This document shows positions 11,019 to 63,947 of a DNA stretch of 64,000 bases, one piece after another. This DNA comes from a virus: the IMG/VR virus record IMGVR_UViG_3300009164_003814; one strand, written 5' to 3'. The notes under the pieces were generated by a model. That model saw only the letters and a program-made list of their open reading frames with translations, was not told the DNA's origin and made no database searches. The position numbers were made by a program, and so were the translations under genes. Every line of letters starts with the position of its first letter. The stretch's first letter is position 1.

Positions 11019-11798
11019 ATGTCAAATCACTACCAAACTCTAGGCGTTGATCGCAACGCAACTCCAGACGAAATTAAACGGGCTTATCGTAAGTTGGCCA
11101 GCCAGCATCATCCCGACAAAGGCGGGGACAAAACCAAGTTTCAAGAAATACAAAGTGCCTATGACACCTTGAGTAATCCACAAAAACGATCCATGCATGA
11201 CAGTCCACAAAGCCCGTTTGGTAATATGGGCGGACAAGGATTTAATTTTGAATCTATCTTTGATGTTTTTGGTACCAGATTTCAACACCCTCAACAACAA
11301 CGTCAGCATCAACGAGCCATGATGACCTTGTGGATCACCTTGCCGGATGTGGCTCGCGGTGGTCCAAAAACCATCAGTGTAGGCACACATCAAGGCACAA
11401 TAACCGTGGAAATAGAAATTCCGCCTGGCATTGACGATGGAGCCAGTGTACAGTATCCAGGTATTGGACCCGGAGGCATGGATCTAGTGATTACATTTAG
11501 AATACATCCTAATCCGCGTTGGGAACGGCAAGGACCAAACTTGATAACAGATCACCCAATTGATGTTTGGGACCTAATCACCGGCACAGAAATTACTGTA
11601 CAAGACATCTTAGGCGCCACACTCAGTTTAACTGTTCCTGCTAGAACACAACCCGGTACCACATTTAGATTGCGTGAACGTGGTCTAGCCCAAAGATCCG
11701 GCGCCGCAGGTGATTTATTGGTGCGTGTACAAGCCCGTATTCCAGACAATATTCCCCAACCTATTTTAGACGCTATTACTCAAACCCGCAACCAATAA
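11019..11798 (+). CDS. dnaJ: DnaJ/CbpA-like co-chaperone (no Zn finger)
   Basis: J-domain with HPD; C-terminal domain with GDLLV. Confidence 0.9.
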   Translation: MSNHYQTLGVDRNATPDEIKRAYRKLASQHHPDKGGDKTKFQEIQSAYDTLSNPQKRSMHDSPQSPFGNMGGQGFNFESIFDVFGTRFQHPQQQRQHQRAMMTLWITLPDVARGGPKTISVGTHQGTITVEIEIPPGIDDGASVQYPGIGPGGMDLVITFRIHPNPRWERQGPNLITDHPIDVWDLITGTEITVQDILGATLSLTVPARTQPGTTFRLRERGLAQRSGAAGDLLVRVQARIPDNIPQPILDAITQTRNQ

Positions 11799-11872: not shown

Positions 11873-14140
11873 ATGCAAAACAATCCTGAAATTGAACAGA
11901 TAGTTGACGCCGCAGTCAAGATAGCACGTGATTGTAAACATGAATATGTGCTAACCGAACATATGCTGGTGGCTTTGCTACGTCACGCACCATTCCGCCA
12001 GGTACTAGAAAAATTTGGTACTGATGTTGTCCGCATGGAACAAGAGATTGAAGCTTACTTGGCTAGTCTAGCCAATCTGGTCACTACTAAAGATGTGCAA
12101 CCCAAAAAAACCAATGCCTTAGAGCGTGTGTTTAACCGTGCCCTGACACAGGTTCTGTTTACTGGCCGTAGAACTATTAGTACATTAGATCTGTACCTGG
12201 CCATGATGAGTGAGAACAACAGCCATGCTCATTACTTTTTACTCAAGTACGGAATCAAAAAAGCCGAGTTTGCCGAGTTCTATCAGGCCAACTACAAGCA
12301 AAGCGATGTTAAACTTACAAATCAACAAGCCACAGAAATACTCACAGAACACTGTACTGATTTAACAGCCTTAGCGCAACAAAATAGATTAGAGCCCATG
12401 ATTGGTCGTGCAGAAGAACTGGACGAAATGATCACAGTGTTGGCTCGCAAGTTCAAAGCCAATGTGCTCATGGTCGGAGATCCTGGAGTAGGAAAAACTG
12501 CCATTGTAGAAGGCTTGGCTCAAGAAATTACAGCCGGTCGTGTGCCTGAATTTCTTAAAGGACATGAACTATGGGGCCTAGAAGTAGGAAGTCTATTAGC
12601 TGGCAGTAAGTATCGTGGTGAATTTGAAGAAAAGTTCAAGGCAGTTATTACCGCACTGGAAACTAAGAAAAATTGCATCTTGTTTGTGGACGAAGCTCAC
12701 ACCATGAAGGGTGCTGGTGCAAGTAGTCAAAGCAGTTTAGACATGGCCAATATGTTGAAGCCCAGCATAACCAAGGGCAGTTTAAAAGTAATAGCATCAA
12801 CCACCTGGGAAGAATACTACGAAAGTTTTGAAAAGGATCGCGCACTCATGCGTCGTTTCCATAGAGTAGGGATTGATGAACCAGATGCTGGCACCACAGA
12901 ACAGATCCTGATTGGGCTCAGTCCTAGACTTGAATCCTTCCATAACGTGTTGATCGACACAGATGCAATCACATCTGCAGTGGAACTAAGCGGTCGCTAC
13001 ATACACGATCGTAAGAACCCCGACAAATCAATTGACTTGCTAGATGGTGCTTGTGCCAAGGAACGTGTAAAAGATGCAGGTAATGTGACCATTACCAAGG
13101 ACATGATCATGGCTCAACTAAGCCGTGTTACAGATGTTCCTATGGATCGATTAGAAAATGAAAGCAGTGCCAAGATTATAGAACTGGAAAGCAACATTAA
13201 ACAGAAGTTGTATGGACAAGATGCCGCCGTGGATCGCGTATTGGAGAGAGTGTACATCAACTTCTCGGGTATTGGCAATGCTAAACGTCCTATTGCTAGC
13301 TTTTTGTTCCTAGGACCTACGGGCACAGGCAAAACAGAGTTGGCCAAATTGCTCAGCGAGCACCTGGATATGAAACTGCTCAAGTATGATATGAGTGAGT
13401 ATCAAGAGCGTCATACAGTGTCAGGCTTGATTGGTGCGCCTCCAGGCTATGTTGGATTCGAAGATGGCAATCTTGGTGGCGGCAAGTTAATTAGCGATGT
13501 CAGCAAACATCCATTTAGTATCTTGTTGTTTGATGAAATTGAAAAGGCTCATCCCGATGTAATCAACATCATGTTACAGATGTTAGATGAAGCCCGCATT
13601 ACATCAAGCAATGGTAAAACAGTAGATCTCAAGAACTGCATCATTATCATGACTAGTAACTTGGGTGCTAGAGACAACGAAAACAACAACATTGGCTTTG
13701 GACAGAGTTTAGAAAAAACTGGTAGCGAAGATAAGGCCATGAAAGAGTTTTTTAAACCTGAACTACGCAATCGTATTGACTGTGTGTGCAAGTTCAACAA
13801 GTTAGATACCCTAGCCATCAAGAAAGTGGTGCTGAAATTTGTAGATGAACTCAAGGTCAGTCTTATGAATAAGCATATTCAATTAACATTATCAGAACCA
13901 GTGATTGACATGCTGGCCGACAAGGGCTACGATTCAAAGATGGGTGCTAGACCCCTAGGACGCAAGATTGATGAACTAATTCGTGTGCCATTGAGTAAGC
14001 GTATTTTGTTTGATCGTTTGGAGAATTGTACAATGCATGCTGTAATGAAAGATGATGCAGTTGAGTTTGTAACAGAACTTTCAACCAGTACAGCCGTGGT
14101 GACTGAAGATGGATACATAGTCCTTGACCCTGAAGTTTAA
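11873..14140 (+). CDS. clpA: ATP-dependent Clp protease ATPase subunit ClpA
   Basis: Clp N-domain; two AAA+ modules (GDPGVGKT, GPTGTGKT); IGF ClpP-docking loop; no ClpB middle domain. Confidence 0.9.
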   Translation: MQNNPEIEQIVDAAVKIARDCKHEYVLTEHMLVALLRHAPFRQVLEKFGTDVVRMEQEIEAYLASLANLVTTKDVQPKKTNALERVFNRALTQVLFTGRRTISTLDLYLAMMSENNSHAHYFLLKYGIKKAEFAEFYQANYKQSDVKLTNQQATEILTEHCTDLTALAQQNRLEPMIGRAEELDEMITVLARKFKANVLMVGDPGVGKTAIVEGLAQEITAGRVPEFLKGHELWGLEVGSLLAGSKYRGEFEEKFKAVITALETKKNCILFVDEAHTMKGAGASSQSSLDMANMLKPSITKGSLKVIASTTWEEYYESFEKDRALMRRFHRVGIDEPDAGTTEQILIGLSPRLESFHNVLIDTDAITSAVELSGRYIHDRKNPDKSIDLLDGACAKERVKDAGNVTITKDMIMAQLSRVTDVPMDRLENESSAKIIELESNIKQKLYGQDAAVDRVLERVYINFSGIGNAKRPIASFLFLGPTGTGKTELAKLLSEHLDMKLLKYDMSEYQERHTVSGLIGAPPGYVGFEDGNLGGGKLISDVSKHPFSILLFDEIEKAHPDVINIMLQMLDEARITSSNGKTVDLKNCIIIMTSNLGARDNENNNIGFGQSLEKTGSEDKAMKEFFKPELRNRIDCVCKFNKLDTLAIKKVVLKFVDELKVSLMNKHIQLTLSEPVIDMLADKGYDSKMGARPLGRKIDELIRVPLSKRILFDRLENCTMHAVMKDDAVEFVTELSTSTAVVTEDGYIVLDPEV

Positions 14141-60536: not shown

Positions 60537-60908
60537 GTGCGCGATAAAAAGAAACTTACTCAAGAACTTGTAGGCCTATTACCCGAGGCTCAACGCATGA
60601 GCCCGGCCTCAGCATTCAGCGCATGGTGGTACAACTTACGCAGTACCGGAGGTCTTAGATTGACCACTCTAGGGTACATAATCTTTGTTGACTATCTTGA
60701 TCTTGCACAATACGAATTCCGTATCGAAGATGCACACGAATTTAATCTACGCACTGTAATTGCCTTAGATCGACAACTGGAATTGCCTTACTATATTGTG
60801 ATTAAAAAAGGTGTACCGGTTAGTGTGATATTTTTTGGCAGTAAAGAAGCCATGTTGGTTAACTTGTACGGCAATTTACAAAAGTTTCTTGACAACTATC
60901 AAACATAG
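60537..60908 (+). CDS. Hypothetical protein
   Basis: Probable GTG start; GGLRLT..G. Confidence 0.55.
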   Translation: MRDKKKLTQELVGLLPEAQRMSPASAFSAWWYNLRSTGGLRLTTLGYIIFVDYLDLAQYEFRIEDAHEFNLRTVIALDRQLELPYYIVIKKGVPVSVIFFGSKEAMLVNLYGNLQKFLDNYQT

Positions 60909-60922
60909 TGTTATACTAAATA
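60889..60922 (+). promoter_or_regulatory. Promoter for the tmRNA precursor
   Basis: TTGACA-17-TATACT with overlapping CTAAATA. Confidence 0.75.
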
Positions 60923-60924
60923 CT

Positions 60925-61340
60925 CAATATGGGCGTGATCGTAATAAGTTTCAAGATGTTCACGCAAAAGGTAATCCTAAGATTGACGGTAAGAATGTTA
61001 AAGGGTATAATTAAAGAATTCGTTGAAGGTAGAAGTATGGCGATCAAGACTCGGGTGCAACTCCCGACATCTCCACCGGAGAGTATTAGATAGTATTCTG
61101 CGGTGGGGATGAATTAGAATCGATTGGCGCTAAAGGGCTACTGGAGGATCGGCAATGTAGAAGCCGTTAGGATTGGGACTACTCAGTCGAAGACACAAAA
61201 ACTTTAAATGCAAACGCATCTAAAGGCGAAGTAACTGTAACTGGTAAGAATGTTAAATTCTCTGCTCGCACAGCACAACGCCAACCATTAGCAGTTTAAT
61301 CACTGCTTAGGGGAATTATCCCTCGTAACAGAAAATAGTA
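60925..61340 (+). ncRNA. ssrA: Circularly permuted (two-piece) tmRNA; outer ends approximate
   Basis: The 3' part (T-arm TCGGG-TGCAACT-CCCGA, CATCTCC-A-CC at 61051-61077) precedes the 5' part (GGGGATG at 61105) and pairs with it, including G3.U; tag frame 61210-61299 ANASKGEVTVTGKNVKFSARTAQRQPLAV*. Confidence 0.88.
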
Positions 61341-61366
61341 GAACCCGCTTCGGCGGGTTTCTTTTT
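61341..61366 (+). terminator. Rho-independent terminator
   Basis: aacccgc-ttcg-gcgggtt followed by T tract. Confidence 0.9.
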
Positions 61367-61490
61367 ATGCGTTGCTAACTCCTAAAAGTACCAAGAAAGT
61401 CTGCAAAAATTGCTAACCACTAGTAGTAACCACTAAATATTTGTCTAGGTTCACAGATCAGTGAACTTTCTTTTAAAAGGAAATATTAGA

Positions 61491-61943
61491 ATGAAAAAAG
61501 TAATCTTAACAGTAGCATTAACTGTAGCCGCCGGGGTTGCAAGCGCCGCTGATGTTGGTGTGTATGGTGGTCGCAATATGGGTTCCGAAAACAATCTGGT
61601 TGGTATTTCAGTTGGACCGTCTTTTGGAAAAATTGGTGTTCAAGCCACAGCCGATCGTAGCACAACTCAGCGTACCGATGTAAATCGTTACACTGCTAGT
61701 GCCAGCTATGATGTAATTAAATTAGGTCCAGTACAAACTAATGTTCGTGCAGGCGTTGCTTTTGTCGATCCACAAAGTGCAAAAGCATCCAATGGCGGTG
61801 CTGGTTTTATAGGTGCCGGTATTGCATACCCAGTTACATCTAAAGTTAATTTAGTTGCTGATTATGCATATCAAAAAGGTAACAACATTACTAAAGCATA
61901 CGATGGTAACATTGTAACTGCCGGTGTCAAGTACTCATTCTAA
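61491..61943 (+). CDS. Outer-membrane beta-barrel protein (OmpA-TM/Ail/Lom-like)
   Basis: Signal peptide ending ASA, amphipathic strands, C-terminal GVKYSF. Confidence 0.8.
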   Translation: MKKVILTVALTVAAGVASAADVGVYGGRNMGSENNLVGISVGPSFGKIGVQATADRSTTQRTDVNRYTASASYDVIKLGPVQTNVRAGVAFVDPQSAKASNGGAGFIGAGIAYPVTSKVNLVADYAYQKGNNITKAYDGNIVTAGVKYSF

Positions 61944-61994: not shown

Positions 61995-62873
61995 TTAAAC
62001 CTTGTTAGGTTTTAGATTTGAAAATTGTATTTTTTTGTATTCGTATGACTCGGGGCAAAATTTACATTGCGGAATAGGGTCATCTAGTGTACGGAAAAAT
62101 TCTTCACCGCGTTCATCAAATTCATCTATACTCAACCCACGATAACTATGTATCAGTGCTCTGTCTTCATCCGATACATCAAATGGATACTGTTGATCAA
62201 ACTGTTGCATTAACGGTGCCGGTCCACATTTATGAATTTTTCCATCAATGAAATGATAATTTTTCCACTGTACAAACCCACAATTGCTGTGTGCTTTTAA
62301 TGGATCACTATTATATAATTTAAATTCACCGTTAGGACCTTCTATAATGTTGCTTTGATTAAAGTGATCACTAATCCATACATGAACTTCAACTCTATTA
62401 GCATCAATAAATTGAAATGTAGACCCAATGGGTGAATTTAAATCGTTAGTTTCTTTTATAGGATGCACCAGATAATTTCTAATACGAGTAAAAATTGCAT
62501 CTCGATCATCAAGCGAATGTAAACTAATTCCTATCCAAGCCCCGATTGCCTTGCACGAGTCGTACAATCCTGGAACTAAATCAATCCTGGTACCGTTTGA
62601 TTGTATTTGTGGTGCATAGTGATCTGGCCACAAGAGACGTATTCCTTCAATCCATTTAGTGATTGAAGGATTGAGTAGTGGTTCTCCGCCAAGAACCACT
62701 GGCTTAATAATATCAATTTTTTCCGCCCACTTTTTAAAAATTGGTTCGTAATCTTCCCATTTTTCCCATCCAGCAAATTTATAATTATTGTATCTATTGC
62801 AACCGGAGCAGGTTAAATTACATACATTTGTGATATAAAATTCTAGTTTATTAATGATTATTCGTTGTGTCAT
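61995..62873 (-). CDS. Radical SAM protein
   Basis: CNLTCSGC, GGEP, SNG, C-terminal CKFC; likely start MTQRII. Confidence 0.8.
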   Translation of the reverse strand: MTQRIIINKLEFYITNVCNLTCSGCNRYNNYKFAGWEKWEDYEPIFKKWAEKIDIIKPVVLGGEPLLNPSITKWIEGIRLLWPDHYAPQIQSNGTRIDLVPGLYDSCKAIGAWIGISLHSLDDRDAIFTRIRNYLVHPIKETNDLNSPIGSTFQFIDANRVEVHVWISDHFNQSNIIEGPNGEFKLYNSDPLKAHSNCGFVQWKNYHFIDGKIHKCGPAPLMQQFDQQYPFDVSDEDRALIHSYRGLSIDEFDERGEEFFRTLDDPIPQCKFCPESYEYKKIQFSNLKPNKV

Positions 62874-63895
62874 AGTGTTTGTTTGTTTACAGGAGGTTTC
62901 CACGATCCGCAAGTATTTACACAAGTATACAATCTGCCTTCTGCAATGCTTGGCATATCCCATGTGTGTTCAACACTATCAAACCATTTAATACAATCTT
63001 CCAATGACGATTCCAAGGCATTATTTCCTTGCACTAAAAGTTTTAATTGTTCATTGCCTGCGTGGTGCATGGTCTTTGGATAATAGCCAAGATAACAACA
63101 TGGATATATTTCTCCATTTGCAGCAATATATAATTCTTGATTTCGTTTATGATTACACCCAATATTCAGTGGAGTGATGTCTTTTGATGATTTAAATGTT
63201 TTTGCATCAAACCAAGTGATATGACTTTGTATCATGGAGATAATATCAGGCTCTATAGCAGTGTTGGGCCATGGTTCACCAAGCCAATGACTAAAATCCC
63301 CAGTACGACTATAAACTGGTCCATTGTTTCTTCCATCACTAATGTTATCAAAATATTTAAATCCTAATTCTTTGGCCAATTCTCTACACTCTTTTTCTTG
63401 ATGTTGATTATGGGTAAATGGAATAAATCTCCAAATTGCAGTGCCGCCGGCGGCAATAAATGCTGTAGCATTTTTAATTACCGTATTCCAATCCGTATCC
63501 TGACGATAGAGAGAGTGCGTGTCTGCTAAGCCATCCAATGCAAATCCCACTTTGACTCCTGGCAGTGCTAACCGTGCCCACCAATCTGGAGTTCTCATGC
63601 TACCATTGGTGTAAATATTAACATTACAGTTATTATCAACTAGGTACCGAACAATCTCAATTCCGTCTTTGGCCAGTCCAAAATCTCCCAAATTACCATT
63701 AAACAACACATGGTCGATTTGCTTTAAAAAATCTGGTTTCAATATTTTTTTAATATCTTCTAAAGACAACTCAGTTATTGGATATCCGCTATTGTACTCA
63801 AGCCCCCGATAATTACGCATGCACATGGGGCATCGAGAGTTACAACGAGTAGTAAGTTCAATTTGAAGTCGAGTAATTTCGTGGAGTTTAAGCAT
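62870..63895 (-). CDS. Radical SAM/SPASM-like protein
   Basis: CNSRCPMC, TNG, G..YPCC, C...C; likely start MLKLHE. Confidence 0.8.
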   Translation of the reverse strand: MLKLHEITRLQIELTTRCNSRCPMCMRNYRGLEYNSGYPITELSLEDIKKILKPDFLKQIDHVLFNGNLGDFGLAKDGIEIVRYLVDNNCNVNIYTNGSMRTPDWWARLALPGVKVGFALDGLADTHSLYRQDTDWNTVIKNATAFIAAGGTAIWRFIPFTHNQHQEKECRELAKELGFKYFDNISDGRNNGPVYSRTGDFSHWLGEPWPNTAIEPDIISMIQSHITWFDAKTFKSSKDITPLNIGCNHKRNQELYIAANGEIYPCCYLGYYPKTMHHAGNEQLKLLVQGNNALESSLEDCIKWFDSVEHTWDMPSIAEGRLYTCVNTCGSWKPPVNKQTL

Positions 63896-63918
63896 GGAAT
63901 ATTTATGTACTATACTGG

Positions 63919-63947
63919 TTGACAAAGTATAAATACCCTTGTATAAT
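63919..63947 (+). promoter_or_regulatory. Sigma70-type promoter with nested TATAAATA
   Basis: TTGACA-17-TATAAT; TATAAATA at 63928-63935. Confidence 0.8.

Follow-up and report, generated by a model that had tools for sequence, protein, structure and literature searches.

The window, the whole 64,000-nucleotide stretch of DNA analysed here, very probably carries a functional two-piece tmRNA gene at 61018-61366 (+), belonging to an uncultured jumbo myophage and to a lineage found so far only in phage contigs. A typical tmRNA tag is short and ends in Ala-Ala, since ClpXP reads this ending. A subclade of giant phages keeps a tag about three times longer, with a different C-terminus and with selection acting at the level of the peptide, and its sister group keeps the ordinary tag. 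The long and ordinary tags offer a natural contrast for asking what a virus gains from a rescue RNA of its own and whether the fate of rescued proteins is redirected.

Two-piece tmRNAs have been documented in phages before: they make up 53 of 133 distinct phage tmRNAs in a study that also describes that of Melnitz (PMC9004378), 79 phage tmRNAs have been counted (PMC11915505), and both tmRNA and SmpB have been reported in huge phages (PMC7162821). What stands out here is a conserved long-tag variant present in many uncultured giant phages. A limited literature search found no description of this tag, and it does not appear in the text supplements of the tmRNA database paper (PMC11915505), a database that covers roughly 12,000 permuted tmRNAs. 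The closest described cases are the Methylophilales phage Melnitz and the Pelagibacter phage Mosig with its relatives (PMC9004378), which resemble the window phage in having a permuted ssrA with an early-type promoter in a large T4-like or jumbo myophage, and in lacking SmpB, so that host factors are needed. In contrast to that group, no glutamine riboswitch was detected at the window gene, which represents another sequence lineage with its own 3' tail motif and encodes a tag of 29 residues ending in LAV (theirs are short and end in AA).

Detection and boundaries of the gene

Rfam's merged permuted-tmRNA model (RF04321, tmRNA_permuted; described in PMC11915505) matches the window at 61018-61299 (+) over model positions 1-213, with a score of 75.7 bits (E 9.9e-13 over the 64-kb window) against a gathering score of 47 bits; the sub-region alone scores 76.2 bits. 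Together with an acceptor stem paired at seven of seven positions and pieces in the permuted order, this match bears out the claim of a preliminary description that the phage DNA encodes a permuted two-piece tmRNA. Of the two programs proposed there as checks, the Rfam permuted model recognizes the gene, and ARAGORN, run over the 64-kb window, does not call it. ARAGORN does call a permuted tmRNA with the identical tag frame in 48 of 83 unique relatives, and it leaves uncalled all of the closest window-type genes (L032, L034, L036, L015, and L016). Since this tmRNA sub-type is missed by ARAGORN and detected by RF04321, such genes are under-annotated. A scan of 60800-61480 against Rfam returned no riboswitch and no further family.

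The preliminary description placed the start of the gene at 60925, which is about 93 nt too far upstream: 60925-61017 lies outside the tmRNA, and most of it (60931-61014) is the remnant of a small neighboring gene (Table 1). The promoter and terminator that it reported both exist, but its promoter (60889-60917) is that of the small gene, and a second lies at 60983-61011. Because the RF04321 match and the conserved block both begin at about 61015-61018, the proximal promoter, which ends 7 nt 5' of the conserved 5' end of the RNA, is likely the tmRNA promoter, with a start near 61018. Its TTGACG-17-TATAAT elements are formed by the 3' end of the small-gene remnant. Read-through from the upstream promoter into the tmRNA gene may also occur.

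Table 1. Features of the tmRNA gene and its upstream flank (window coordinates)
Feature	Position	Strand	Description
Upstream sigma-70-like promoter	60889-60917	+	TTGACA-17-TATACT with TG; 11 of 12 matches; precedes the intact small gene in L004, L005, and L008
Small-gene 3' remnant	60931-61014	+	27 codons and stop; no start codon; N-terminal half lost
Proximal sigma-70-like promoter	60983-61011	+	TTGACG-17-TATAAT; 11 of 12 matches
Acceptor piece	61018-61077	+	P2 3'-side strands, T arm, acceptor 3' strand, A61075, CC 61076-77
P2 3'-side strands	61018-21, 61028-32, 61039-47	+	Pair with 61146-49, 61138-42, and 61124-31, respectively
T arm	61051-67	+	Stem 61051-55/61063-67; loop 61056-62, UGCAACU
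Acceptor 3' strand CAUCUCC	61068-74	+	7 of 7 paired with GGGGAUG 61105-11, including G3.U
Discriminator A61075, CC 61076-77, G61078	61075-61078	+	ACCG, not ACCA; terminal A not encoded
Intervening segment, 27 nt	61078-61104	+	7-bp hairpin 61080-86/61093-99, 97.6% paired in alignment
Coding piece	61105-61366	+	Acceptor 5' strand, P2 5'-side strands, hairpins, tag, stop-codon hairpin, 3' hairpin, terminator
Acceptor 5' strand GGGGAUG	61105-11	+	
P2 5'-side strands	61124-31, 61138-42, 61146-49	+	
Two hairpins 5' of tag	61150-66 and 61171-88	+	
Tag frame	61210-61299	+	Resume GCA 61210-12, 29 sense codons, stop UAA 61297-99
Stop-codon hairpin, 5 bp	61291-95/61302-06	+	UAA 61297-99 in loop
Conserved 3' hairpin	61310-61323	+	One compensatory pair
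Phage-lineage tail motif CCUCGUAACAGAAAA	61320-61334	+	Follows 3' hairpin
Intrinsic terminator	61341-61366	+	Stem-loop 61341-60: 8-bp GC-rich stem, loop UUCG; then T run

Structure of the two-piece RNA

Laid out base by base, every helix is intact in the window copy. In six sequences with the module of the window, aligned unguided with MAFFT, the structure of 65 pairs is 97.9% paired, and slid controls on the same window-type sequences are 34-45% paired. Twelve pairs have changed on both sides in these six sequences, compared with 3.6 in shuffles, and none of 500 shuffles reaches twelve. The P2 helices, which join the two pieces, are among those with compensatory changes; one P2a position is U.G in the window and a mismatch in three of the six relatives.

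The tRNA-like domain has a 7-bp acceptor with G3.U70, A73, a CC(A) end, and a 5-bp T stem closed by a 7-nt loop. Across 71 unique family genes, G1-C72 and G2-C71 (39 of 40 short-tag and 31 of 31 long-tag genes) and G3.U70 are kept, and acceptor positions 4-7 and the T stem are each represented by two to four different Watson-Crick pair types; this set was chosen by a parser that requires pairing, so that the diversity of pair types is informative and the percentage paired is not. The unusual details listed in the preliminary description (the G3.U acceptor pair, the CCG ending in an ACCG context, the UGCAACU T-loop, and the self-pairing 27-nt spacer) are all present in the sequence. The nucleotide after ACC may be A, G, U, or C across the family, with the terminal A unencoded in about one-third of relatives, and T-loops fall into the classes UUCGAnU, GGCrGnG, and UGCAAnU. 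The incomplete CCA and odd T-loop thus read as ordinary variation within the phage tmRNA family.

The hairpin spacer between ACC and G1 suggests that the precursor is cut into two RNAs and that the 27-nt intervening segment is removed during processing. Among relatives, spacer length ranges from 24 to 257 nt. In one of these (L084, Ga0164295_10309123), the spacer between ACCA and G1 is 136 nt long and holds an open reading frame of about 40 codons with a hydrophobic N-terminal half; spacers of variable length were also noted for L207, L208, and L133.

The long tag

The reading frame entered at GCA 61210, after UUUAAAU, runs for 29 codons to UAA 61297-99 in the loop of the stop-codon hairpin, so the resume context (TTAAAT-GCA) and tag length given in the preliminary description hold. 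This frame is conserved in more than 80 unique relatives, and the context UAAAU-GCA is kept in all family members. The window tag begins with ANASKGE, has the core GEVTVTGKNVKF, and ends in PLAV. A canonical ssrA degron ends in Leu or Val followed by Ala-Ala and is recognized by ClpX; the window tag ends instead in Leu-Ala-Val. Two substitutions are private to the window, Thr for Ser at codon 11 and Pro for Ser at codon 26, although Pro at codon 26 is also found in one relative (L050).

Codon variation in the long-class core, GEVTVSGKNVKF, is mostly synonymous and includes a TCN/AGT serine switch. The final Ala-Val codons are invariant in 28 of 28 unique 29-codon tags, and the flanks vary in amino acid. 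The nearly synonymous variation of the core and the invariant end indicate that the long tag is a translated peptide under selection. The long tag differs from the ordinary one by about 57 nt of additional coding sequence, located after codon 3 and before the last four codons, and by a terminal Val in place of Ala. It appears to have replaced the ordinary ANDxxFALAA tag in one phage subclade. The altered C-terminus probably changes or weakens the handling of tagged proteins by ClpXP, and the long tag would most likely act as a degron that is weakened or redirected.

Distribution among phages

Relatives were retrieved in two ways. A pattern from the tag coding sequence, in which part of the tag is fixed, found 47 viral and 65 metagenome contigs that yield 83 unique segments, all 83 with a tag of 28-29 codons ending in Leu or Phe and then Ala-Val. 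The second search used the 3' tail motif CCUCGUAACAGAAAA, which does not depend on the tag, and found it in more than 118 viral contigs; as an exact pattern, which diverged versions would escape, the motif had no match among 185,579 species genomes of bacteria and archaea. The tag has 10 residues (ANDxxFALAA type) in 40 of the 71 fully parsed unique genes and 27-29 residues in the other 31, and a wider tag listing has a single intermediate, one parse of 13 codons. An exact T-arm/acceptor 28-mer also has no match in the 185,579 species genomes, so that neither host nor donor can be named from it. Viral sequences scanned with the 5' end of the coding piece of the window gene gave no match, and blastn and tblastn searches of 50,697 deposited phage genomes with the gene and tag gave no real match, only chance hits resembling terminators. 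On these searches, the tmRNA lineage appears so far to be known solely from phage contigs.

The window is a fragment of a jumbo myophage. Its family-B DNA polymerase shares about 50% identity with those of the jumbo phages Phosso (Sinorhizobium) and Atu_ph07 (Agrobacterium) and about 43% with those of GAP32-like jumbo phages. Relatives of the neighboring gene and tmRNA occur on IMG/VR contigs that reach 344-524 kb, including a 344-kb contig with direct terminal repeats that is rated complete, and each of five related phage contigs has exactly one such tmRNA gene. The gene is common at this location and is not universal: two relatives (L006 and L007, with 86-88% identity in the neighboring gene) have no tmRNA in the 3.5-4 kb downstream. 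In several others (L016, L032, and L211), the tmRNA adjoins arrays of 5-12 tRNA genes; an ARAGORN tRNA search of the 64-kb window found no tRNA gene.

Origin of the permuted arrangement

The two clade-specific Rfam models have thresholds of 84 bits (RF01850, betaproteobacterial two-piece tmRNA) and 50 bits (RF01849, alphaproteobacterial). The window gene scores 50.1 bits on the former, over model positions 74-172 only, and 51.1 bits on the latter, over positions 80-179 of 355 only, which are the tRNA-like core. It is filed under RF04321 alone because its RF01850 match is below threshold and not full-length, and its low RF01850 score is due to a divergent P2 and pseudoknot-region module. RF01850 matches over the full model in the long-tag genes L004, L009, and L084 at 93-128 bits, and at 93-155 bits when the short-tag L001 and L010 are included. 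On RF04321, the window scores about 76 bits versus 115-135 in L004-type relatives. The divergent P2/hairpin module is shared by the window and its nearest relatives (L032, L034, L038, L211, L215, and L016); window-type members score 64-76 bits on RF04321. Their alpha and beta scores are only 34-55 bits and come mostly from the tRNA-like core, and the better-fitting of these two models differs between members; on RF01849, window-type relatives reach 46 bits or have a better match to the beta model. We infer that the window gene descends from a beta-like phage lineage.

The combination of T-arm, P2, and hairpin modules differs between family members, which suggests frequent recombination within the tmRNA gene. 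The region from P2 to the resume codon takes two forms, a short stem-loop or the two hairpins of the window; both tag classes use both forms, and these combine with at least three P2 designs and several types of T arm. The sister phage tmRNAs with ANDxxFALAA tags (e.g., L001, L138, and L186) have the same stop-codon hairpin, 3' hairpin, tail motif, and terminator as the window gene, share with it a pool of T-arm, P2, and hairpin modules, and lie in similar jumbo phages with a ClpA-like gene. The betaproteobacterial two-piece tmRNA, said to have been described by Sharkady and Williams in 2004, has the same gene order and tRNA-like core, and five phage genes (L004, L009, L010, L084, and L001) match its whole model. 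The window gene differs from it in a tag about three times longer and in a tail motif absent from the bacterial genomes searched.

The preliminary description had suggested that the phage gene may represent an independent permutation, and such a phage-specific event now seems extremely improbable. The window-type module is convincing on neither clade model (alpha 51.1 and beta 50.1 bits, tRNA-like core only), and the tail motif occurs in none of the 185,579 species genomes. Yet gene order, tag, stop hairpin, and tail are common to relatives that match the full-length beta model at 93-155 bits; the syntenic L004, L009, and L084, which pass RF01850, have a tag, stop hairpin, and tail almost the same as those in the window gene, and the tail is also common to phage tmRNAs with ordinary ANDxxFALAA tags. 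The exchange of P2/hairpin modules among family genes likewise points to one lineage diverging or recombining. The arrangement therefore reads as divergence and recombination inside one phage lineage, rather than a fresh permutation.

Proposed processing and tagging

The pathway proposed here for processing, charging, tagging, and the fate of tagged proteins is read from the sequence features described above. Host RNA polymerase would transcribe a precursor of about 350 nt from TTGACG-17-TATAAT, with upstream read-through possible. Host tRNA-processing enzymes would excise the 27-nt hairpin spacer, with RNase P cutting 5' of G61105, the 3' end would be trimmed to ACC61077, and the missing A would be supplied by the host CCA-adding enzyme. 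The products would be an acceptor RNA of about 61 nt and a coding RNA of about 262 nt, joined by base pairing in the 7-bp acceptor stem and in P2 helices that total about 17 bp. G3.U70 and A73 would make the acceptor a substrate for alanyl-tRNA synthetase, and the charged RNA would enter stalled ribosomes with host SmpB and EF-Tu. Translation would then resume at GCA 61210, add Ala and 29 residues, and stop at UAA 61297. In the complete 344-kb relative, neither an SmpB gene nor a PF01743 CCA-adding enzyme was found; the RNA would therefore depend on host proteins to be charged, delivered, and given its complete CCA end.

Alternative readings of the gene and its tag

That the tmRNA works and its long tag is a specialized signal rather than a ClpXP degron, serving another protease or slower degradation, is possible but doubtful. 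Tagged proteins may be routed to ClpP through the phage's own ClpA-like unfoldase, or to host Lon, as happens in Mycoplasma. Val rather than Ala is the last residue of all 28 unique 29-codon tags, their core is constrained at the peptide level, and tag lengths cluster at 10 or 27-29 codons, with the one 13-codon parse between. Val-ending ssrA variants (AAV and ASV) were reportedly found by Andersen et al. in 1998 to be degraded more slowly in E. coli, and Gur and Sauer are said to have shown in 2008 that the tmRNA tag of Mycoplasma, about 27 residues long, serves as a degron for Lon. Among the proteins encoded in the window are a double AAA+ protein of ClpA type at 11873-14140 (Clp_N, AAA, AAA_2, and ClpB_D2-small domains) and DnaJ at 11019-11798, and a true ClpP (270 bits) is encoded in the complete relative, G001. 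However, the ClpA-like gene is also present in the short-tag phages G007 and G009 (73% identity) and G011-G013 and G015 (47-64%), and of five contigs, most of them incomplete, a single one proved to encode ClpP. A tie between the long tag and the phage ClpA-like gene was tested and is not supported, as short-tag phages have that gene too. Identity of the ClpA-like protein to that of the window is 80-88% in long-tag phages and 47-73% in short-tag phages, a gradient that suggests a single origin of the long tag, in the subclade closest to the window. It is unlikely that the long tag is a signal evolved by the phage itself, in which a freshwater-type subclade expanded the tag, changed the degron, and replaced host ClpXP with a route of its own choosing; if so, proteins rescued from stalled host ribosomes would be passed to phage ClpA-like/ClpP or shielded from degradation. 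A weaker corollary would be that this phage-only tmRNA lineage, with modules that score as alpha-like or beta-like depending on the member, has moved two-piece modules between bacterial classes. The Mycoplasma tmRNA, with its Lon-specific tag of about 27 residues (cf. PMC8403727), resembles the phage gene in having a long tag that does not end in LAA, but it is a one-piece RNA of a cellular organism with no sequence similarity to the phage gene. It illustrates that tag expansion can accompany a change of protease.

The remaining readings question whether the window copy tags proteins at all. Decay or inactivation after local deletions is quite improbable. It would account for the missing ARAGORN call, an RF04321 score below those of L004-type relatives, the adjoining deletion that truncated the small gene and removed a spacer of about 190 nt, and the two private substitutions at codons 11 and 26. 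Against it, all helices are intact, as are the tag frame, stop codon, promoter, and terminator; at least six independent contigs, all scoring 64-71 bits, carry the same divergent P2/hairpin module with compensatory changes; and one of the two substitutions, Pro at codon 26, recurs in L050. A decoy that occupies host SmpB or alanyl-tRNA synthetase and blocks host trans-translation without tagging has a precedent in the CDS-less tmRNA-like RNA of mycobacteriophage DS6A, which works in this way (PMC11915505), and a phage clade without its own SmpB implies an RNA that must compete for the host protein. This role is very improbable for the window gene, as the open tag frame is conserved at constant length, variation in its core is synonymous, and UAAAU-GCA is kept in all members. 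A use of the tmRNA against RNA-cleaving defences, as proposed in the preliminary description, is conjectural, and no feature of the sequence speaks for or against it. A functional tagging tmRNA, probably with a weakened or redirected degron, remains the preferred reading.

Neighboring genes and local deletions

In relatives, an intact small gene encoding about 55 amino acids lies upstream of the tmRNA (L004, 4320/4419-4583, and 14 other loci), with the motifs GCGPLP and KGNPKIDGKxVKGYN-stop. About 190 nt present in relatives between the small gene and the tmRNA has been lost from the window; in relatives (L004, 4591-4704, and L008), one to three tiny membrane-peptide open reading frames lie between the two genes. 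The possibility that 60931-61014 is a second tag or the relic of a permuting duplication was ruled out, as it is the 3' end of the gene for the conserved protein of about 55 amino acids. The C-terminus of this protein and the tag have a G-x5-GKxVK pattern in common. In relatives the similarity is marginal, being matched by 45-82 of 2000 shuffles; in the window none of 2000 shuffles matches it, and it is strong there only because of a single identical run of 15 nt, GGTAAGAATGTTAAA, at about 60989 and 61245.

In the window, the DnaJ gene, which encodes a J domain and a C-terminal domain, adjoins the gene of the ClpA-type unfoldase, and an unfoldase of this type (47-88% identity) is encoded in all sufficiently complete related jumbo-phage contigs. 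Downstream of the tmRNA, 61492-61943 (+) encodes a small outer-membrane beta-barrel-like protein with a signal peptide, followed at 61995-63925 (-) by two radical SAM proteins, one of which has a SPASM domain.
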